IMG/VR virus record: IMGVR_UViG_3300023214_000238
Coordinates: 1-47,268 of that record
Length of the DNA: 47,268 bases
Direction: 5' to 3' (one strand)
From: a virus
Taxonomy: Duplodnaviria > Caudoviricetes
Below the pieces are notes generated by a model. That model had not been told where the DNA came from. It worked only from the letters and a program-made list of their open reading frames with translations, and did not search any database. Both the position numbers and the translations under genes were made by a program. Below, piece by piece: positions 10,984-40,289 of the stretch. The number at the start of each line of letters is the position of its first letter. The first letter of the stretch is position 1.

Positions 10984-11153
10984 TCGCGGCGGTCGGTGTC
11001 AATGCCTTCGTTACCGAGTACAGAGAAAGGATCAACTCATGCCTCTCGAAAATGAACCAAACGATCGAGAACAACGAGAAGCCGTTCGATCCGGACAAAC
11101 TCTGGAGGGAAGGCAAGATATCGGAACGTATGCGGCGTGCACTGAAAGGCTGA
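10917..11153 (+). CDS. Possible small membrane protein
   Basis: N-terminal hydrophobic stretch (FTIFYAPIVIAAVGVNAFV) then polar tail; overlaps neighbours. Confidence 0.4.
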   Translation: MLGVLRWIIGVGRFTIFYAPIVIAAVGVNAFVTEYRERINSCLSKMNQTIENNEKPFDPDKLWREGKISERMRRALKG

Positions 11154-11401
11154 ACGCTCTCGCCTCATGCCATCAGGCCCTAACAGCGTCTTATTGCACG
11201 TCAACCGATCCCGAGACACTGGAAACACTGGACACAATTAGGTCCGCAATGGCCGATATCGCTCGGTCCGAAACGCCCCTCTCAGTTGAAGACTACGAGG
11301 AATTGACCGATGCCGAAATCGCCGACATCGAACGGGAGCTCGAAGCTGAGGCGGACGAATCCATCGACCAATGCGACGTCGAGCAAGACGGTGAATCATG
11401 A
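11039..11401 (+). CDS. Acidic hypothetical protein (start uncertain)
   Basis: Acidic helical C-terminus; stop overlaps next gene start. Confidence 0.4.
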   Translation: MPLENEPNDREQREAVRSGQTLEGRQDIGTYAACTERLNALASCHQALTASYCTSTDPETLETLDTIRSAMADIARSETPLSVEDYEELTDAEIADIERELEAEADESIDQCDVEQDGES

Positions 11402-14405: not shown

Positions 14406-14777
14406 TTAGGGAAAGATGTCGTTATTGTGGTATCCGAACCTCCACAGTTCCGTCTGCACCGAGTGGGCGCGATGCCAGGCATCATCGGCGAGACGGACGG
14501 CTTCCTGGAGGGCGAGAATTGACGCACCTGGATTCAACCTCGGTCGCCTCACCTGCGCGTCGCGGAGACGGCGGTGAGCGTCCCACGCATCAGCCAAGGC
14601 CCGTTTCATCTCTCTGTCATACTTCTCCCTTGCGTCCTTGTCCTTTTGTTTCAGAAGAGAATGAACGTAGCCCACCTTGAAGGTGGCGGACTGGACGTCG
14701 TTGTGAGCCTTGTAGGCAAGAGCGTCTTCATAGACGGCGGTAAGGAAAGCCACTGAAGCGACGATGGCGGAAATCAT
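14406..14777 (-). CDS. Hypothetical protein with hydrophobic N-terminus
   Basis: First ORF after leftward promoter; GGAG RBS. Confidence 0.6.
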   Translation of the reverse strand: MISAIVASVAFLTAVYEDALAYKAHNDVQSATFKVGYVHSLLKQKDKDAREKYDREMKRALADAWDAHRRLRDAQVRRPRLNPGASILALQEAVRLADDAWHRAHSVQTELWRFGYHNNDIFP

Positions 14778-14826
14778 TGGGCTGGCGTCTCCAAACCAAA
14801 GGTGGTCGGCACCCCGAACATCTCAA

Positions 14827-14855
14827 AGCATACCCGAAATCCGTTCCCATGTCAA
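14827..14855 (-). promoter_or_regulatory. Sigma-70-type leftward promoter
   Basis: TTGACA-N17-TATGCT on minus strand. Confidence 0.75.
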
Positions 14856-14913
14856 TAGGAGTAACCAAGTTTCAAAAATAATTGAATGTCCGTCCGAATA
14901 TTGAGAATGCAAT

Positions 14914-15410
14914 GACCGTCTAATGATAGACAGTCGCTCTACACCATTCCCGTTTGGCAACCGGCGGGAACCGTTGAATAGACGGAAACCCAGAATGGGG
15001 AGTAACTTGGGGCAGAATAGCTCAAAAACAAGGCGCTCGCGTCCCGGCCGACATACCGGGCCGTCGCCTTGGCGGTTTCGTGTGGCTTCCGCGCCCTGTA
15101 TGTTCTTCTCACACTCTGATTCCGTCGCCGGGCGTCTTCCATACAGAAGGCGTTTGCTGCCCTATTCCGGAGGGGCTTCGTCACCCCCAGGGCTGAAACA
15201 TCTGTTTCCTCGCATAATGAAATTCCGGGCTCTGCTGGAGGCTTGCATCCCGGTGGCGATACGCCCACCTCTCGGTGGGGAACTATTCGGGGAAACAGAG
15301 GCTTCGCCGGCTTCCGGCTGGACTTCCAGCTAGAAACAACGCAACGGAGAGCACAGAAGACTCGCCTCCGGATACGTACTAGTATCGCCGGAAAGCCGAC
15401 GGTATGCGCA
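14914..15410. ncRNA. Candidate large structured non-coding RNA (unassigned; + strand favoured)
   Basis: Dense hairpins plus long-range helices 15008-15015/15157-15164 and 15201-15212/15288-15299 with G-U pairs on +; no convincing ORF. Confidence 0.55.
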
Positions 15411-15476
15411 GTGGGAATAGTGAAATCATGCGAAAGTTCATCAACTTAGTGAAGATTAAAAATCCCCAGCTTGGGG

Positions 15477-15505
15477 TTGACATGGACTTGGAGTTGGTGT
15501 AGAAT
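15477..15505 (+). promoter_or_regulatory. Sigma-70-type promoter
   Basis: TTGACA-N17-TAGAAT upstream of radical SAM gene. Confidence 0.8.
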
Positions 15506-15548
15506 GCCCTCAATCGAAAACCGAATGGCTTCTCGGGGAGGCAAAGCA

Positions 15549-16997
15549 TTGAGGATTCACAACCTGAGGTTCGGTCTTGCGACGAATTCGTCATCGACGC
15601 ACTCGCTGATCTTTCTAGAGCCGGGAGCTGAGCGAAAGGCCCACGACGACTGTGAGAGCGGAAACTACGGGTGGAAATACTTCACACTCAAGAGTCAGGG
15701 TGAAAAGGCGAAATATCTTGCAATCATGGTTCGCGACCAGCTTGTCGATCAGGTTCCCGACGGATACATTAGGGTGCTTCTGAACGACTGGTTGGGAACA
15801 GACGTTTCCGACGTGGCCGAGTCCGGCTATGAGAACTACACATATGTCGATCACCAGTCGAGATACACCTTCCCGCTTGCATACGGCCACAGAGTGATCG
15901 ACGAAGAATTCATCAAGGAGGTTTCGGCCCTTCTAAGGAGAAGCGACGTGGCGGTCCTCGGGGGGAACGACAACGACGATCGAGATCACCCCCTTTTAGG
16001 CTCCGGCTCGACGTTCAGCCTTCCGCTGCCCCAGGATTCGCGGGACACCCTCGTTTGCCGCAAAGATGAGAAATACGGCTATTGGGCGGTCTTCAATCGC
16101 GACACGGGGACGAAGGTCCGGTTCAGCTTGTCAGCCGACTCGCCGGAATTCGATTTGAGCCCGGAGAAGTCATACGCACCGGAACTGGTTGATCTCAAGA
16201 TAACGGACTATTGTCCGATAGGATGCCCGTTCTGCTATCAGTCATCGACAACCGAAGGGGGTCATTCCAAGGTCTTGGAGTCCGGAATACTCGAAGCTCT
16301 TGGAGAGGCGAAAGTTTTCGAGGTCGCCATTGGCGGCGGGGAGCCGACTCTTCACCCGGATTTTACTGGCATCTTGAAGGAATGCCGGAAACTTGGAATG
16401 GTTCCCAATTTCACCACGAAGAGCCTCCTTTGGCTCAAGAAGCCCGATCGGGCTAAGGTCGTCCTTGAGAATTGCGGGGCGTTCGCGTTCTCGGTCTCCA
16501 AGTTGAGCGAGGCGATCAAGCTCATGAAGCGCCTCAGCGAACTTGGGGTGGACCCAAGGAAGGTCAACCTTCAGCTTGTGATGGGCGTCGTGAGCCGCAA
16601 TGAGTTCAAAGGCATCCTCTCGCTTGCTGAAGATCGCGGAGTTCGCGTCACCCTCTTAGGATTCAAGCACGTTGGATTCGGGGCGGAATATGAGCCCGAT
16701 CATCTTTTGGACTACTCATGGTGGCTCGACGTCGTTCAAGAACTGAAGGAGGCCTATCGTTGTCCGCCCATTGGCATTGACACGGCCCTTGCGTCCGATT
16801 ATCGAGAGGAGCTAAACAAGAAGGGGGTCTCCCGAATGCTTTACGAAACTCAAGAGGGGAAGTTTTCGTGCTATATCGACGCTGTCACGAGGAAGATCGG
16901 CCCGTCCTCCTACTGCAATCCGAGCCTCATGAAGGGGTTGCACAAATCCAAATGCTGGCTCGAAGAGGACATCTTGGAGAAATTCGCCCAATTTTGA
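15549..16997 (+). CDS. Radical SAM protein with N-terminal TNSSS-motif domain
   Basis: CPIGCPFC (CxxxCxxC), GGGEPTLH, C-terminal SCYIDAV...PSS; TTG start after GGAGG. Confidence 0.9.
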   Translation: MRIHNLRFGLATNSSSTHSLIFLEPGAERKAHDDCESGNYGWKYFTLKSQGEKAKYLAIMVRDQLVDQVPDGYIRVLLNDWLGTDVSDVAESGYENYTYVDHQSRYTFPLAYGHRVIDEEFIKEVSALLRRSDVAVLGGNDNDDRDHPLLGSGSTFSLPLPQDSRDTLVCRKDEKYGYWAVFNRDTGTKVRFSLSADSPEFDLSPEKSYAPELVDLKITDYCPIGCPFCYQSSTTEGGHSKVLESGILEALGEAKVFEVAIGGGEPTLHPDFTGILKECRKLGMVPNFTTKSLLWLKKPDRAKVVLENCGAFAFSVSKLSEAIKLMKRLSELGVDPRKVNLQLVMGVVSRNEFKGILSLAEDRGVRVTLLGFKHVGFGAEYEPDHLLDYSWWLDVVQELKEAYRCPPIGIDTALASDYREELNKKGVSRMLYETQEGKFSCYIDAVTRKIGPSSYCNPSLMKGLHKSKCWLEEDILEKFAQF

Positions 16998-17214: not shown

Positions 17215-17253
17215 GTGCACTGAAAAGCTGAAGCGTTCAGTCTTTCAGTGCAC
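17215..17253. other. Long intergenic stem-loop
   Basis: GTGCACTGAAA...TTTCAGTGCAC perfect 11 bp plus inner CTGAA/TTCAG stem. Confidence 0.7.
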
Positions 17254-17286
17254 GCACAAAAGGCGAGAAAGCGAGGCAGGTCGATA

Positions 17287-17883
17287 ATGGAGGCGACTCA
17301 GGAACAGATCGATGAGCAAGTCAAAGACGCAATTATCCTCGTCAGGTCGATGGCGGCGAAATGGTCAAAGGTGGGACAAGGAATTCCAAATTATGAGGAC
17401 TACGAGTCGGCAGGCAATGAGGTCATAGCGGAAAGCCTCAAAACGTTCGATTCCTCAAGGGGGGTCACATTTGCGGCCTACTGTCACCGGGCTCTTGTCT
17501 GGAAATTCACCCAAGAAACGAAACGCCTAATGACGGGGGGACTTGCGTGGACCGGAGCTTGTCGCAAGAGAATAACGGACCTCATGATCAAGGAGAAATT
17601 CAATGATGCGGAGTATGAAGAGTTCCTTCGGTCAGTTGAATCCCGAGAGACGAATCACGAAGACTACATCGACTTCATCGACGCCAAGGAAGAACTCAAA
17701 GCGGGAATGACACCTGAAGAAAGAGGCGTGTTCGAGGCTATTGTCCAAGTCGCTCCACAGTGGCTTCTCAATGCCGATTACGCCAAAGAGGCGGGCCTTA
17801 CGTACAATGAGGTCAAGTACATCAAAGAACAAGCACGAAGAAAGGCGAAAGAGAATGCAGGGCGAATTCGTTTCGGAGCTTGA
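17287..17883 (+). CDS. Second sigma-70-like protein
   Basis: LVRSMAAKW...YEDYESAG...SLKTFDSSRGVTFAAY (region 2); MTPEER...YAKEAGLTYNEVKYIKEQARRK (region 4-like HTH). Confidence 0.75.
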   Translation: MEATQEQIDEQVKDAIILVRSMAAKWSKVGQGIPNYEDYESAGNEVIAESLKTFDSSRGVTFAAYCHRALVWKFTQETKRLMTGGLAWTGACRKRITDLMIKEKFNDAEYEEFLRSVESRETNHEDYIDFIDAKEELKAGMTPEERGVFEAIVQVAPQWLLNADYAKEAGLTYNEVKYIKEQARRKAKENAGRIRFGA

Positions 17884-18859: not shown

Positions 18860-19635
18860 TGCCAGAACCGCAAGAACAGAACAAGAGGGACGAGACCTGC
18901 AGGAAGTTCAGCGAGCTATACAGGGAATTTCCCAAGGAGGAGATCAAGTACAGAGAGGTTCGGGGCCAAAGCCTGGCGTACATTACCGCAAGGTCGGTCA
19001 TGAACCGCCTTGACGCCGTCTTCGGCCCGGAAAACTGGGAGGATTACTACCAGGTCACTGAGTCCGGTAGATGGATATGCCGGATCACAGTCCACCTTGA
19101 CGACGGCCGCTCCGTCGTCAAGTGCGGGGCCTCGGGCGAAAACCTGAACATGAGCGATCCGTCCGACATCCCAAAGTCTGGGGCGACGGACGCATTCAAG
19201 ACGGCGGCGGTGAAATTCGGGATCGGCCGCTACCTCTACAATGATGGAATCGTCAATCTTGAGACGGGCGGAATCACGCACTCTACACGCGAAGAGCCGA
19301 CGCAGGGCAGCGCTAATCAGTCGAAGCCGTCGGCAAGGAGTAGATCGTCTCAAGAGATCAAGCCCGGCGATTGGCATAAAATGCCGTCGCCCAAACACGG
19401 GCGGGCTCTGTTCGCCCGCATCAGAGAGATCGAGGACACATTCAAGGTCAAGTTCCTCAATTCCGTGAATCAGCTAGTCAAGGAGCAATTCGGCGGCGAA
19501 ACGCGCATTGTTGACCTGGCCGACGAGGACGCGGTGTCGCTCTGGCATGGCGTCAAACAGATACTCGATGAACACTTCGGGACAGAAAGCCCGGCCGAAG
19601 AAGACGATTCAGACGACAACTGGCCTAAGTTCTGA
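18859..19635 (+). CDS. Rad52/Rad22-family ssDNA annealing protein (Sak-like)
   Basis: LAYITARSVMNRLDAVFGPENW and KSGATDAFKTAAVKFGIGRYLY. Confidence 0.92.
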   Translation: MPEPQEQNKRDETCRKFSELYREFPKEEIKYREVRGQSLAYITARSVMNRLDAVFGPENWEDYYQVTESGRWICRITVHLDDGRSVVKCGASGENLNMSDPSDIPKSGATDAFKTAAVKFGIGRYLYNDGIVNLETGGITHSTREEPTQGSANQSKPSARSRSSQEIKPGDWHKMPSPKHGRALFARIREIEDTFKVKFLNSVNQLVKEQFGGETRIVDLADEDAVSLWHGVKQILDEHFGTESPAEEDDSDDNWPKF

Positions 19636-21357: not shown

Positions 21358-23036
21358 TGAAGACAAGAGACGAAATACAGGCTGAAATGGTTGACGCCGT
21401 CGCGTTGTGCGTGGAAAAGTCGAACTCCGCTGTCATTGAAGCGGCGACGGGGGTCGGCAAGACGAAGGTCGCCGCAGACGTCGTTCGCCATTTATCCGAA
21501 GCCAAGGGCTGGAAGGCTGTATTTCTCGTCGATGAGGTCAATCTAAGGGAACAGAGCGCCCTGGCTCTCGAACACTGGGGCCTCCGGGTCGCCGTTGAGG
21601 GCGGGGAAAGACGCGCGTCCGATCTTGAGCTATTGCAAGCCGGGGAAGTCGATGTGCTTGTCGCAACGCGACAGACGCTAGCACGAAATGGGACAGGGGA
21701 GGCAAGGTATCGGTCTGCGCTTTTTCGACTCGGATGGCCCAAGGCTCATATCCTCATTGTGGACGAATGCCACGTTGGAATCACGGGTAAAGAACTCAAG
21801 GCTGTTCGCAGTCTCGTTAAGCCGGAGTTCACCCTTGGCCTTTCGGCTACCCCTTATCTTTCCAGCGGAGTTAAGTTAGTTCCGGAGATATTCGATGAAA
21901 CGGCGTACAGATATCCGGCGGAAGACGCCGATGGGAAGCCGGGCGCGATTTCCAACGGGCACCTTGTCCCCCCTTATTGCCTTGACTGCCAAACATCAGT
22001 AGACCTTCGGGGTCTCAAAACGGCAATCACCAGCTTCGGCAAGGACTACAATTCGGGGGAACTAGACAGGCTTCTCGCCGAGCATGTGGGCGAACTTGTC
22101 AATGCGGCGCGCCAGCAGATCGAGTTGAACGGCCCGGCCACGAGGGGGATCTGCTTCTGTTCTTCGGTGGCGCTGGCCGAAGCGTTTGCGTCTGTCTGGC
22201 GATCGGTGGGATGCACGTCTGAGGCAATGCATGGGCAGAGTCCTGACGCCGAAGCCATCAAGGCGAAGTATCAGAATGGGGAGATCCAAGTCCTTTGCGT
22301 CTGTCAGATGGGCACGAAGGGGTTTGACGACCCCCCGACCGACTTCCTCGTGTTGGCCCGGCCGACGAAATCATATCCGCTGGCCCGTCAGATGGTCGGT
22401 CGGGGGCTTCGCCTGTGCCCGGAAACGAACAAAACGAGATGCCTTATCATTGGATTTGCGTGGCAGGCCGACGAAAGCGCGGAGCCCGTCTCTGTCTTGG
22501 ATATCTTCTCCGAGGGCCTTCCCGAAAACGTTCGCAGCATTGCGAAGGGCATATCTTCCCAAGCATCGCGCGACGGCGGGGCTGTCAATCCTCTTGATAT
22601 TATCAACACGGCAAAAATTGAAGCCGAATCCAGGGAAAGGGCTGGCAAAAAGCCATACACCCTGGCTTCCGCTGAAAGAAGAGACGTCGAGCACAAAGTC
22701 AGAATTCGCGACATATTCGGAAACGAATATGAGGTCGCCGGGGTGCAGCCAATCAAAGACGATCTTCCGGCGGAGGAGGCGGCGGCTGAATCTCAGTTGA
22801 GACGACTTGAGGCCATCGGGGTTCCCAAGTCGAGGATTTCAGGGATGACGTCAGGAACAGCCGATCGGATTCTCCACTTCTGGGAAGGGCGCGGAGAAGC
22901 CGGAATGAGCACGTACAAACAGGCGAATCTCATCATGAAGCACAAGAAGGACATGGACATGAAAGCAATATGCGATCTTACAAAAGACGAAGCGAGTCGG
23001 ATTATTTCCAAGATCATGAAAAGGTGGAAGAGATGA
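21357..23036 (+). CDS. Superfamily 2 DExH helicase
   Basis: ATGVGKT, DECH, SATP, KGFD.P and QMVGRGLR motifs. Confidence 0.92.
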   Translation: MKTRDEIQAEMVDAVALCVEKSNSAVIEAATGVGKTKVAADVVRHLSEAKGWKAVFLVDEVNLREQSALALEHWGLRVAVEGGERRASDLELLQAGEVDVLVATRQTLARNGTGEARYRSALFRLGWPKAHILIVDECHVGITGKELKAVRSLVKPEFTLGLSATPYLSSGVKLVPEIFDETAYRYPAEDADGKPGAISNGHLVPPYCLDCQTSVDLRGLKTAITSFGKDYNSGELDRLLAEHVGELVNAARQQIELNGPATRGICFCSSVALAEAFASVWRSVGCTSEAMHGQSPDAEAIKAKYQNGEIQVLCVCQMGTKGFDDPPTDFLVLARPTKSYPLARQMVGRGLRLCPETNKTRCLIIGFAWQADESAEPVSVLDIFSEGLPENVRSIAKGISSQASRDGGAVNPLDIINTAKIEAESRERAGKKPYTLASAERRDVEHKVRIRDIFGNEYEVAGVQPIKDDLPAEEAAAESQLRRLEAIGVPKSRISGMTSGTADRILHFWEGRGEAGMSTYKQANLIMKHKKDMDMKAICDLTKDEASRIISKIMKRWKR

Positions 23037-23389
23037 TTGACTTCAATCAGGTCGAATGCCGCCGCGCCTCGCCGGAACGAGAAGCCGACTACAACATTAT
23101 GAGGGAGCTCCTTGCTCTCTACTTGTGGGCCTACGTACCCAAAGGCTCTAGGGCGGCAATGTGGCTTCACTATGGCTTTGGAGGTCCAGCCAGAACTCCA
23201 CAAGAGGTCGCCGACATACTCGAAATCGACGTTCAGGCGGTTCACAAGAGGCTTTCGTTCGGAAGGGACAAGCTTTTGGAAACAAGCAAGAGCCCCAACG
23301 AAGCAAGGGAAGTTGTCCGCCGGCGATGGACCCGCAAGATTACTAAGGAATTCAGGCGTCCTTGGGAGATTTTCCCAAACTGGGGTTGA
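23033..23389 (+). CDS. Stand-alone sigma-70 region-4-like HTH regulator
   Basis: LHYGFGGPARTPQEVADILEIDVQAVHKRLSFGRDKL resembles region 4.2. Confidence 0.7.
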   Translation: MIDFNQVECRRASPEREADYNIMRELLALYLWAYVPKGSRAAMWLHYGFGGPARTPQEVADILEIDVQAVHKRLSFGRDKLLETSKSPNEAREVVRRRWTRKITKEFRRPWEIFPNWG

Positions 23390-30110: not shown

Positions 30111-30181
30111 CGGCGTGTAGCTCAACGGCAGAGCGGTCCCCTTATAAGGGATTGATTCGGGTTCGATTCCCGACACGCCGA
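30111..30181 (+). tRNA. tRNA-Ile (anticodon UAU)
   Basis: Cloverleaf: CGGCGTG/CACGCCG acceptor, GCTC/GAGC D stem, GTCCC-CT TAT AA-GGGAT, TCGGG-TTCGATT-CCCGA; CCA not encoded. Confidence 0.92.
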
Positions 30182-30184
30182 TCA

Positions 30185-30256
30185 GGCCCCGTGGTCTAAT
30201 GGCTAGGACACAGGCCCTTCAAGCCTGTAATGCGGGTTCGACTCCCGCCGGGGCTA
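30185..30256 (+). tRNA. tRNA-Glu (anticodon UUC) with atypical C33
   Basis: GGCCCCG/CGGGGCT acceptor, CAGGC-CC TTC AA-GCCTG, GCGGG-TTCGACT-CCCGC. Confidence 0.9.
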
Positions 30257-30258
30257 AT

Positions 30259-30327
30259 GCGGCGCTCTTGGCCAACTCGGCACAGTCCGGGGTCAAACTG
30301 GCCGGTTGTGACGGCCAAGAGCGCCGC
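30259..30327 (+). ncRNA. Rod-like hairpin directly after the tRNAs (candidate small RNA or processing signal)
   Basis: Perfect 15-bp inverted repeat 30259-30273/30313-30327 with inner stems AAC/GTT, CGGC/GCCG and CAGT/ACTG. Confidence 0.5.
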
Positions 30328-30402
30328 TTAATCCACGGGTGCCCTCGGCGGGAGTCGCGGTATCACCACATCGGAGCGAGACCCCAGAACGGAGATAAGA
30401 TA

Positions 30403-32061: not shown

Positions 32062-32616
32062 GTTTGACGAACGCCAGTACTTGTACATGGAATACCGAGA
32101 GCCTAGGGCTAATATGGTGGCGGTGATGTCTGAATCTTCCCGGTGAATTCCAAGATTAGCGTCGGACATCAAATCTAAAAAGCTGGGTGAAAAGTCGAAA
32201 AATGTGAGAAAAATCCAGATCCAGGGGCGAAGATCAGCCCACAGATGCCAGCCGTGGGGCGTCCGCGAAAGGTCGTCGTAATACTTCATCCCCTGACGGG
32301 TTATCCCTATGACCTTTTCAGATTCGCCCCCTGGGGAGTCCGCAGTTGATTCAAGGGACTCCAAGAGATTCACGTCGATTCCATGTTTTATTGACCGGTT
32401 GAGTTCGGGAGAGAACAGACACTCACCGCTTTTCGATTCAGACCAATCCGAGGGCCCAGGCCGACCGCATGTCCCGGCGAACCGAACAAGAGCATGGAAC
32501 GACTGTGGCCGCATGGGAGACGGGCGAACGGCGGACAAGATATCCAAAATATTATATATATATTTATGGAAGTTTGCGGATGTATATGGATTATGAATTT
32601 TGGAGTTTTTCCCCAT
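32014..32616 (-). CDS. Hypothetical protein
   Basis: 200-aa ORF filling an otherwise empty interval; no motif recognised. Confidence 0.45.
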   Translation of the reverse strand: MGKNSKIHNPYTSANFHKYIYNILDILSAVRPSPMRPQSFHALVRFAGTCGRPGPSDWSESKSGECLFSPELNRSIKHGIDVNLLESLESTADSPGGESEKVIGITRQGMKYYDDLSRTPHGWHLWADLRPWIWIFLTFFDFSPSFLDLMSDANLGIHREDSDITATILALGSRYSMYKYWRSSNLFAEQWWRPTAVLDE

Positions 32617-32781
32617 ACGGAAGGGCTCAATCCGCGCCAGATCGGGTTTTAATTCATTCGTTTGAAAGCAAGTTATACTAGCCTTCCCGCATTATCCAGT
32701 CTTTCTATTTTATCTAGGCTGTAATGTCTTGCCCTCCTTTCCCGGATTGCCCGGATTGCCTGAATTGCCAGGTTTAACTTG

Positions 32782-33125
32782 CATGGATGAATGAGTGCAT
32801 CCATTCACTCACTCATCCACGCAATCACGCCCGCATGGTTGCATGCATGCATTCATCCACCCATTCATTCAACCACTCACGATTGCACGATTGTGTGACT
32901 GAATGGGTGACTGCATGCGTGACTGCATGCGTGACTGCATGCGTGACTGCATGAATGCACGCAACCGCGCATGCACTCACCCATCCGTTCGTGACTGCGC
33001 GAATGGTTGCGTGCATCCGTGAATTCTTGGTTGAGTGACTGATTGGGCTCGTGCAACCGTGATTGCATCCATCCACCCACTCACTCATTCGCGCTTGGTT
33101 GATTGAATCAATGCAATCACGCACT
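32782..33125. repeat. Degenerate 4-bp-register (CATG)n array, left
   Basis: 86 consecutive tetramers in unbroken register, mostly CAnn or nnTG. Confidence 0.9.
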
Positions 33126-33607
33126 TTCCGGACAGCGCCGATTTCGACGCAATCGCGATTAAGCGCATGATTGCATGGATGTGTGCATCCATTGAGTCCC
33201 CGATCGCCCTCCGTTAAGCGGTACGCGCAGTCGGACGGAAGCGGCGGAGAATCACGAAATTCGTCCGACAATTAAACGATAGGCCCACGTGTCCAGGCAC
33301 GGGATTTGCTGCGCGCGCACGCGCGGGCGCGCGTTCTCCTTAGTTCCCGACCGAACCGGCCACGGCGAGGCGGAAAGCGCGCCAGTTTGACACCGCGAGA
33401 GAAAACAGCGAAAGCGCAAACTCTTGCCGCGCAACGACTTGCGGAAGCCCAATGCGTGCATGCATCCATGCAATTGTCGCAAAACCCAGGTGTCCTACTT
33501 GACGGCCGGATTTTTCAGTGAGATTTCCTGAAAAGTTTTAAACCTAGCGCCGGCTTGTGCTTGCGTCGATTACGCCGCGATTTTTCGCGAAATCCAGCGG
33601 CCGGCAG

Positions 33608-34215: not shown

Positions 34216-34273
34216 GCCCCCCGGCGCGTTGCCGGGGGCTCACCACAAGGCCGGCCCCGCGTTGGGGCCGGCC
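34216..34273. repeat. GC-rich intergenic hairpin element copy 1 plus a second hairpin
   Basis: CCCCCGGC-GCGTT-GCCGGGGG; GGCCGGCCCC-GCGTT-GGGGCCGGCC. Confidence 0.8.
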
Positions 34274-34562: not shown

Positions 34563-34584
34563 GCCCCCGGCGCGCGCCGGGGGC
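34563..34584. repeat. GC-rich intergenic hairpin element copy 2
   Basis: GCCCCCGGC-GCGC-GCCGGGGGC. Confidence 0.8.
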
Positions 34585-38016: not shown

Positions 38017-38038
38017 GCCCCCGGCACGCGCCGGGGGC
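38017..38038. repeat. GC-rich intergenic hairpin element copy 3
   Basis: GCCCCCGGC-ACGC-GCCGGGGGC. Confidence 0.8.
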
Positions 38039-38152
38039 ACACCTCGCGCTTCGCACACCTCGCGCTTCGCACACCTCGCGCTTCGCACACCTCGCGCTTC
38101 GCACACCTCGCGCTTCGCACACCTCGCGCTTCGCACACCTCGCGCTTCGCAC
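38037..38152. repeat. Perfect 16-bp tandem repeat x7.25
   Basis: GCACACCTCGCGCTTC seven times plus GCAC. Confidence 0.97.
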
Positions 38153-39041
38153 GAATTCAGGATTCGTAATATCAAGATGGGCTCATGCTGGCTTTTTAGC
38201 ACCTACGCGCTCCCGCGCGCGCTCAATTGGGCCAGGCGAGTTTCAGGACGCGCGAAGAAATGGACATGGATGGAACGGCCTTCCCATAAACAGATGCTTA
38301 TGCGTTTCTGATTTGACACCCGCAGGTGCTCAGATTCTCATGTGTCAGGCATGGGCAAATCTTGATATGTTTGGACGCTCATATGAGGTCGCGCTTGAGT
38401 GACACTGACAAGTGTATGATGATGTGAGTGAGTGTCACTTTTGTTCACGCGATGATTCCGTCACATGTGGATTCGAGCATATAAGGGGCCTCGATTGTGT
38501 TCATATGTGGGGGTGAGGGATTGGGCACATGAGGGAGTTTGCATATTAGGGATTGGGCATGTGATTGCGGGTGATCACATGAGAGATCGTTGATTGCAAC
38601 ATCTGTTCAATTAAGGACTTGCGTGTATGATTGTCATGTGACTGATGGGCACATGTGGGATTGCGGATTCGGGAATATGGCGTTACGTCGATATGATGCT
38701 GTGCGTTGGCGACGAGCGGAAAGAGGCGACCAGATCGGACTGAGCGGATGGCGGACGGCGGCTCAATGTCATCCCAATGTCGCCGCCTGGCGGGGCGGGG
38801 GCCGGCGTGTCGCCAGAGTGTCACTGGCCCGGCGACTGGCCGGCGTCCGATGGGTTCGCCTACGACGTTCGGACTACAAGCCAGGCATGGCAGCGACTAC
38901 AGTTGTAGGATGCCCCGATTTTCGACTGCCTAATTTTTGGGCAGTGCTGCCTAATTTTGGGGCAGTGCGTGAGATTGCGTCCATCCACGCATGCACTATG
39001 CACCCATCCACCTTGCGATGCAAAGCCGCCCCCCGCGATTC

Positions 39042-39429
39042 CATCCATGCATGCACGTATTCAGTCGTCCATCCACCCATGCACTCACCCATTGGCTTAT
39101 CAGTGCATCCATCCATCCACCCATTCATTCCCCCATAATTCCAAACATGCATCCATGCGCCCATGCATCCAAACGCTCACGCATCCATCCATCTACCCAC
39201 TCACCCGTGAATGCATGCATGCATGAACCTGCCCATGCATCCATCCATGAATCCATGCATCCACCCATCCATTGTCGCATGCGTCCATCCACCCATGCAT
39301 GCACCCATGCACCCATCCAGTCAAGCACGATCTCATCCATTCACTCATGCATCCATGCATGCATGCATGCATCCATCCATCCACCCACTCATCCACCCAT
39401 GCATGCACCCATGCATCCACCCAAACATG
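39042..39429. repeat. Degenerate 4-bp-register (CATG)n array, right
   Basis: 97 consecutive tetramers in register, mostly CATG/CATC/CACC. Confidence 0.9.
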
Positions 39430-39891
39430 AGGGATACAACGGTAAATTTACATATGTTGATGCGTTGTGTCGCCCACCTCCAATTTTCGTCACTGAACTA
39501 TCGAAATTGAACCTAGGACAAGAGTAGGATGGATGAAGTTGGATTCACGAAAAGAATGTCCTGTATTGATGCTGGGGCACCCTAGCGTGTGTGCGTGTGT
39601 GCGTGTGTGCGTGTGTGCGCGCCTATTAGGAATTAATACTCCCTTCGGTCGTATTAATGGACTCTGGTACTACACTCCGTGTATCTTCAGATACTTCGTA
39701 TCTTCAGATACACTCCGTTCCGTCCCAGAGTCTTTTCCATTCAACGCCTCTCTTAATCCGAAATGCAATGGTTCAGAATGAACCATTTCCATTGTATCCG
39801 TGCGGGCGCGCGAATTTCGCGTGTGCGTGCGTGCGGGCGCGCGTGAGGGACCGGCCCAGAGGCGGACCTGGGTGGGTGGGTTAAATCCACG

Positions 39892-40226
39892 ATGCCGCTG
39901 AGAGGCCCTGAGAGGCTATGTAAGGCCATCCTGGGGGTGTGGTCGATAGATTCGCCACCCAGGTCGCCGCGTGGCCTTACAGAGGCTTCTAGGGGCCTTA
40001 GAACGAAAGGGGGGTGTTCCAGGTGGTCCGGGAATTCAGGTCCCAAGCCTGGACTCCCTAGATTACGTTCTGGACTTCCTAGGTTGCACTTGGGGCGGGG
40101 GGCACTGGGCCTGGAATGCCGCTGAGAGGCCCTGTGTGCCCCTGTGAGGCGATTCTAGGCCTGAGGTCGATATAAACGCCACCTTGGAGTGAAAACGCCT
40201 TACAGAGGCTTCCAGGGGCCTTAGAA
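39892..40226. repeat. Duplicated box pair upstream of terS
   Basis: 19-bp box at 39892 and 40116; 30-bp box (1 mismatch) at 39974 and 40197. Confidence 0.85.
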
Positions 40227-40289
40227 TGGAAATCGCGATTTTTCTACCTGGAAACCTAGATTTAGAGTTATGGTTATATAGGGGGCTTC

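Follow-up and report, generated by a model that had tools for sequence, protein, structure and literature searches.

A predicted multidomain fold between divergent phage operons as a candidate large non-coding RNA

The candidate element lies in a linear virus DNA record of 47,268 bases with tailed-phage genes and a completeness estimate of 50%, the whole of which was analysed and is here called the window. Domain and profile scans identified genes for a tape-measure protein, a terminase, a Prim-Pol, a helicase, a thymidylate synthase, a DHFR and three sigma-like proteins, of which the sigma-70-like gene at 809-1351 gave a strong match and those at 17248-17883 and 22970-23389 gave weak ones. 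The two tRNAs of the record, tRNA-Ile (anticodon TAT) and tRNA-Glu(TTC), are both located at 30111-30256, behind a promoter-like site. They are directly followed by a 26-pair hairpin domain (30248-30338) that has no Rfam match at gathering thresholds, in a part of the genome where the scan window starting at 30214 folds well.

The element itself sits in the gap 14778-15548, with a minus-strand cluster to the left (a 123-aa orphan, a DUF4406 gene and a nucleotide kinase) and a plus-strand cluster to the right, in which a radical SAM gene comes first. The 123-aa open reading frame that borders the gap (14406-14777, minus strand) has coding-like codon use, and its sole match is its own sequence. 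The radical SAM protein on the other side (15549-16997, plus strand, with an inferred start codon) belongs to a large unnamed family that is widespread in phage records, with 2124 hits among 8000 candidates scored and 71 viral loci; no NCBIfam family reaches the cut-off for this protein. A 24-base inverted repeat (11135-11158 and 17232-17255, 96% complementary) brackets a 6-kb block containing a metallophosphoesterase gene, the minus-strand cluster, the candidate RNA and the radical SAM gene. No inversion joint at this repeat was found in the contigs of two runs, in which rare variants are dropped, and no recombinase was found among the phage proteins scanned.

The DNA of the stretch is genuine and no assembly artefact, since contigs from one run and from a second sample match it without a difference. 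In the first run, a contig spans 14000-16500 with zero differences from the record, as compared to 3 differences in about 19,600 bases elsewhere; this run is a possible source of the record and was hence not counted as independent confirmation. Contigs from the second sample, which belongs to the same study, cover 15041-15479 with zero differences and leave 14756-15040 uncovered.

The phage is an orphan, with the nearest terminase 55% identical and the nearest radical SAM protein 48% identical. Ten terminase-related records share the terminase, once also the thymidylate synthase, and almost nothing more with it, and synteny could therefore not be used for locating homologues. No terminase relatives were confirmed in the genome collection. 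A planctomycete host was considered and is unsupported, a tail-region protein having no match in 301 genomes of one phylum. A possible packaging-site region immediately precedes the small terminase gene, at 39892-40231, where a diverged direct repeat occurs twice with a separation of about 224 bases.

The gap 14778-15548 carries no coding signal: in agreement with the original prediction of a gene-free interval, no credible gene was found in it. The stretch holds two open reading frames, at 14923-15333 on the plus strand (136 codons) and at 14939-15268 on the minus strand (109 codons), and these would be the basis for reading it as a small orphan protein gene. With a codon model trained on 25 phage genes, the plus frame scores -0.192 per codon and the minus frame -0.025, the latter one standard deviation above the off-frame mean (-0.148 +/- 0.122, n=256), which is a point in favour of a gene; but both scores fall beneath those of all 53 in-frame gene segments (+0.152 +/- 0.072, lowest +0.006). 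Neither frame has a match in Pfam or PHROG, no ribosome-binding site was seen at a usable distance before either start, and none of the pattern candidates for the two frames was confirmed (0/15, 0/503 and 0/11). The plus frame, which had been singled out as the place to look for a conserved coding signal, gave 0 matches among 1.84 billion protein representatives and displays neither conservation nor coding signal. An exact look-up of both frames was also empty, but here the radical SAM control was absent as well. The orphan-gene reading is largely refuted, and we consider it very improbable.

Folding z-scores, put forward as a check when the element was first described, are well under zero on both strands. 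For 14914-15422 they are -3.27 (plus) and -4.42 (minus), with 100 shuffles per strand, none of which folds equally well, and a repeat estimate in the genome scan gave -3.65 and -4.22, respectively; for 14914-15410 they are -2.58 (plus, 1/100 shuffles as good) and -3.77 (minus, 0/100). The stretch contains 44 perfect Watson-Crick helices of at least 6 bp, as compared to 25.9 +/- 5.1 in 60 shuffles. The folding excess is concentrated in the 3' half (15195-15400), where z is -4.2 on both strands; the 5' half (14940-15200) has z-scores of -1.5 and -0.9 and is not significant alone (25 shuffles for each half).

We also compared the candidate to the rest of its genome by scanning 92 windows, all 510 bases long, with 4-6 shuffles for each and a phase set from 14914 that favours the candidate. 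By best strand, its window comes about sixth, level with the fifth, and by strand sum it comes fourth; a coding window with a Rad52/Erf-like gene (18994-19503) has a folding excess of -26 kcal/mol vs the candidate's -29. These ranks, and the insignificant 5' half, agree with the view that the stretch is a neutral or decayed spacer that separates two divergent promoters, its fold being due partly to chance and partly to the region having been picked for its structured look, aided by recurring short GC words. This would leave unexplained that no shuffle out of 100 reaches the fold on either strand and that the candidate is the first, by best strand as well as by sum, of the 63 windows that start before 32 kb, in the gene-dense part. 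The five windows that equal or beat it by best strand all lie in the gene-poor, repeat-rich part at 32-40 kb, and two higher-ranking ones (32764 and 33784) contain simple repeats or a repeated GC hairpin. The fold is beyond chance when measured against shuffles, and moderately so when measured against its own genome; a neutral spacer is in our judgement unlikely, though a serious contender.

The repeat-rich part of the genome has features of its own. Long tracts of 4-base words (CATG, CATC, CACT-like) occupy 32780-33200, which has the highest folding excess in the scan, and 39030-39430. A 22-base GC-rich palindromic hairpin recurs at about 34216-34240, 34563-34584 and 38017-38038, in each case directly after short genes of an early-type region and without a U tail; it is possibly a processing or termination signal. 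Directly after the GC hairpin, at 38021-38168, an exact 16-base unit is repeated in tandem in about seven copies, in an iteron-like manner.

The complementary arms named in the original prediction are all present in the sequence, but part of the structure drawn from them is displaced in the ensemble, for which plus-strand pair probabilities were calculated over 14880-15440. Well supported, with mean probabilities of 0.94-1.0, are the hairpin 14914-14935, the stems 15029/15071, 15043/15060 and 15129/15156, the 12-bp helix 15201/15299, and the stems 15345/15370 and 15371/15386. The helix 15008/15164, drawn as closing a domain, and the local GCCGG/CCGGC hairpin (15306-15318) are absent from the pairs with p > 0.3; the hairpin 14947-14970 is seen in the shorter fold (14914-15410) but is absent from the ensemble at the same level. 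The pairings preferred over these displaced helices are 14981/15126, 14946/15418 and 15307/15391. Both arms of GCTGGA/TCCAGC exist, but they leave a 2-base loop, and at most five of the six pairs can form. The 3' limit had been set at 15410, but the structure continues for 12 bases to 15422, where an end-closing helix is formed.

This end-closing helix, which had previously gone unnoticed, pairs 14942-14963 with 15400-15422 and is long and imperfect, with about 20 pairs. It is predicted in the ensemble and in the folds of both strands; a duplex test, in which the arms were chosen after seeing the fold, found the duplex equalled by 23/1000 shuffles for the plus strand and by 5/1000 for the minus strand. 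The helix is positioned where the AT-rich promoter flanks border on the element, and the folded unit fills the space between them, a placement that argues against a neutral spacer. Outside it, a terminal hairpin at 14914-14935 (ensemble p 0.96-0.99, also present in the stem census) has nine unbroken pairs on the minus strand, one of them G-U, and one C-A mismatch on the plus strand.

The end-closing helix is predicted to enclose five or six domains. On its inner side there is a small stem at 14964-14974. It is followed by a long interrupted domain at 14981-15126, which is closed by a 7-bp Watson-Crick helix and carries the stems 15029/15071 and 15043/15060; its middle register differs between the strands, and the 5' half of the element, to which it belongs, is weakly supported. 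Next are a hairpin at 15129-15156 with 11 pairs, including four G-U on the plus strand, and a small domain at 15159-15193 with a 5-bp closing helix, both taken from the ensemble. A three-way-junction domain at 15201-15299 is closed by the 12-bp helix 15201-15212/15288-15299 and contains the stems 15225/15253 and 15264/15279, the latter a perfect 6-bp stem with a GAGA loop on the minus strand that we take to be a GNRA-type tetraloop. The last domain, at 15300-15397, has a four-way junction in the plus-strand fold, with the stems 15316/15331, 15345/15370 and 15371/15386, and in the minus-strand fold is partly rearranged into a long stem. The two strands fold partly differently, with 93 pairs at p > 0.5 on both, of 153 and 160. 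Spare complements of 7-8 bases join loops and junctions at 15096/15146, 15052/15406 and 15255/15389, and these could represent pseudoknots, alternative folds or contacts between molecules. In the first of them, the loop and one stem base of the hairpin 15129-15156 (positions 15140-15146) could pair with the complementary segment 15096-15102, either as a pseudoknot or in a loop-loop contact. Many pairings in the ensemble are mutually exclusive, which would suit a neutral spacer.

The element is flanked by two good matches to sigma-70-type promoters, both of which point away from it. The one at 15477-15505 (plus strand, 11/12) belongs to the radical SAM gene and bears out the separate promoter that had been proposed at 15477, and an opposite-facing site at 14827-14855 (minus strand, 10/12) faces the minus-strand cluster. 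Two weaker promoter-like sites are directed into the element. A plus-strand RNA from the site at 14901-14927 (plus strand, 9/12, 15-base spacer) would begin near 14934. The site at 15425-15453 (minus strand, 8/12, 17-base spacer) stops 3 bases short of the closing helix, and an RNA initiated there on the minus strand would have its 5' end at about 15418-15421, at the first bases of that helix. Sites as good as 8/12 occur about once per kb per strand, with 94 in the window. A terminator-like hairpin with a T-rich tail (15464-15476, minus strand) is situated just upstream of the minus-strand site, although it could alternatively be an operator palindrome next to the promoter at 15477. No strong U-tailed terminator was found at either end of the element.

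The lack of such a terminator and the position at a divergent switch would also fit a cis-acting structured leader, in which a transcript from one of the weak sites runs through the element into the neighbouring operon and the nascent RNA modifies the polymerase or its read-through, by analogy to the put RNAs of HK022. Yet the two strong promoter matches flank the element and face outwards, and hence do not transcribe it, and each operon has a promoter match of its own. Moreover, the put RNAs are reportedly far shorter, and an end-closed fold would suit a released RNA better than a nascent leader. A cis-acting leader seems to us quite unlikely.

The original prediction had also stated that the mismatches are mostly G-U on the plus strand, which fails on a count: C-A mismatches, which are G-U on the minus strand, outnumber those that are G-U on the plus strand. 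Beside helices common to both strands there are 11 rows of C-A (one position occurring twice) vs 3 of G-U, and a fold-independent census of 26 interrupted stems gave 9 C-A, 3 G-U and 14 other mismatches, where about 4 (a sixth) would be expected for each of the first two. In addition to the C-A excess, the better z-score, the GAGA tetraloop, the promoter-like site with a 17-base spacer and the terminator-like hairpin upstream of it point to the minus strand. The 9/12 site, with its 15-base spacer, the hairpin with four G-U pairs and the centroid energy (-198 vs -192 kcal/mol for the minus strand) point to the plus strand. The share of A among the unpaired bases is equally high for the two strands (35% and 34%), and no RNA sequencing run holding the stretch was found among the runs listed. 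Overall, the minus strand is somewhat the better candidate for the transcribed strand.

The stretch also folds in excess when treated as DNA (z -3.2 and -3.5), and its composition is strand-symmetric (C 141, G 141, A 100 and T 99), so that nothing forces an RNA reading. Both observations would be accommodated by a DNA-level element that forms hairpins or cruciforms in unwound DNA, either as a replication or priming signal for the Prim-Pol and the helicase, the genes of which are in the window, or as a protein-binding array controlling both promoters; that most of the strong stems are pure Watson-Crick is likewise in its favour. However, a nested multibranch fold of 480 bases presumably exceeds what such signals are known to need, the G-U-type mismatches are biased to one strand, and there are better origin candidates in the genome, namely an AT-rich tract near 32540-32720 and the 16-base tandem array at 38021-38168. 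We consider a role at the DNA level improbable, slightly more so than a cis-acting leader.

No homologue of the stretch was found by DNA, pattern, profile or covariance-model searches. A blastn search of 50,697 phage records and 72,556 plasmid records was empty at E <= 1, and four exact-motif scans returned 11, 13, 18 and 24 loci, none of which extends past the seed. Searches with nhmmer revealed no homologue in 82 loci, 71 of which are radical SAM loci, in loci amounting to about 1.6 Mb, or in 27 genomic radical SAM loci. Among 36 virus records, 5 had DNA matches of 14-19 bases and nothing longer. In genome samples from three phyla, matches of 21-44 bases were obtained for 10/401, 2/301 and 1/301 genomes, with no homologue among them: the three from the latter two sets were rejected as they are inside open frames of 451-683 codons, and the ten from the first set were judged to be chance by length and model score only. 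Three covariance models were built from the single sequence and thus have little sensitivity beyond a sequence search; the automatic structure of the first was without the 12-bp helix, and it was replaced by the second, which was run on 44 selected loci. Such models gave empty results for 99 and 100 sources and for virus records (0/49 and 0/52), and a 19-bit match in one of 150 genomes was rejected since it is inside a 590-codon open reading frame. There is no second copy of the element within the window, and a literature search, with subscription journals largely outside it, found no paper on the element.

The element does not accompany the radical SAM family: 71 viral and 27 genomic loci of that family have no counterpart upstream of the gene. 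A neutral spacer would agree with this pattern. But the phage has no close kin, and a lack of homologues is therefore expected either way and says little about function. The element is a singleton candidate and not an established family.

We also compared the stretch to known RNA families. Apart from the two tRNAs, no Rfam 15 family reached its gathering threshold over the window, and a lenient search of the element as given (unpermuted) yielded three matches with E-values of 1.1-5.3, all far under threshold; the Rfam check, in which a match would have removed the novelty, leaves the element with no family. The GOLLD model (RF02032, conserved 3' domain) gave 0 candidates at E <= 10, with control genomes detected only under the cut-off. 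For ROOL (RF03087) there was no match in the Rfam searches, and a single-family run was also empty, its controls being silent.

Several other RNAs have a similar size or an end-closed multi-domain layout, namely RNase P RNA, tmRNA, the group I intron and the cobalamin riboswitch. Lenient single-family searches, in which the controls were detected for all four, gave no match to any of them. For RNase P RNA type A (RF00010), 8/14 controls scored over the cut-off; by eye, moreover, the 5 bases between the inner and outer closing stems are too few for the last conserved region of the RNase P layout. For tmRNA (RF00023), ARAGORN finds none either. A group I intron (RF00028) is at odds with the flanks, which are divergent promoters and not exons, and no split gene flanks the element; a cobalamin riboswitch (RF00174) is at odds with the radical SAM gene having its own promoter match downstream of the element. 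A few short stretches resemble motifs of RNase P, the cobalamin riboswitch, group I and II introns, tmRNA and SRP. All of these likenesses were rejected after the model searches, and the motifs of the RNase P, riboswitch, intron and tmRNA types are not in the needed order in the element.

Taken together, the gap, its lack of coding signal, the excess of folding and the promoter matches on both flanks lead us to favour, tentatively and at a little under even chances, the reading of 14914-15422 as a stand-alone structured phage non-coding RNA of about 480-510 nt that would serve as a folded scaffold, by analogy to GOLLD and ROOL. What stands of the original suggestion of a possibly undescribed phage RNA is that the stretch is non-coding, folds beyond its shuffles and matches no Rfam family; the strand argument, part of the drawn structure and the 3' limit do not stand. 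Transcription of the RNA would start at a weak promoter of its own. The minus strand is the likelier template sense, with a start at about 15420 and an end at the hairpin 14935-14914. Alternatively, it might be transcribed with the help of a phage sigma factor, which is proposed because three sigma-like genes lie in the window. The predicted fold would have five or six domains closed by the helix between both ends, and this helix and the terminal hairpin might protect the RNA from nucleases. Free loops and spare complementary segments could make long-range or between-molecule contacts, through which the RNA may act as a stable folded scaffold.

It is more doubtful that the element founds a new class of large ornate phage RNAs that are about 500 nt long and end-closed, comprise five or six domains joined by loop-loop contacts, and have no relation to GOLLD, ROOL or any Rfam family, in a phage lineage without close sequenced kin. 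Such an RNA could self-assemble or carry an undescribed catalytic core. Few bacterial or phage RNA classes of such a size have been described, and large phage RNAs of comparable size without known function are reported (PMC12286853). If the proposal is true, an unrelated 500-nt class would be a new test case for the use that phages make of large RNAs, and it would lend itself readily to probing and cryo-EM because it can be transcribed in vitro. At the singleton stage, the element is a lead rather than a discovery.

Large ornate RNAs are those of over about 350 nt, and the element is of this kind in being non-coding, longer than that limit and rich in helices, as far as these are predicted. 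Among smaller systems, the put RNAs of HK022, which are said to modify RNA polymerase and control read-through in cis, share with it a folded element near early-type phage promoters. They differ in that the present element is located behind both strong promoter matches, downstream of neither, with weak promoter-like sites inside, and is several times longer. The intergenic structured RNA candidates identified in IMG/VR viruses by Fremin et al. are 29-151 nt long and required three or more matching regions (PMC10690425); size and selection rule set them apart from the element, although one of its sub-hairpins could be among them.

The closest systems are GOLLD and ROOL. These RNAs, for which no function is known, are carried by phages and prophages, frequently close to tRNA islands, and assemble into protein-free cages (PMC12286853). 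GOLLD, as described there, is like the element in being large, multi-domain, phage-borne, non-coding and of unknown function, but is often over 800 nt, as compared to about 500 nt here, and its model gave no match. GOLLD is further characterised by a homo-multimeric nanocage and by expression during lysis. Both RNAs are often found by tRNA islands, whereas the nearest tRNAs to the element (30111-30256) are 15 kb away, and both have reported cages (PMC12286853), whereas the element is known here from sequence prediction. ROOL is an established family, marked by a covarying structure with several pseudoknots, and has no match to the present singleton, but it resembles the element in its similar size (574 model positions), its phage setting and the possible pseudoknot-type spare pairings.
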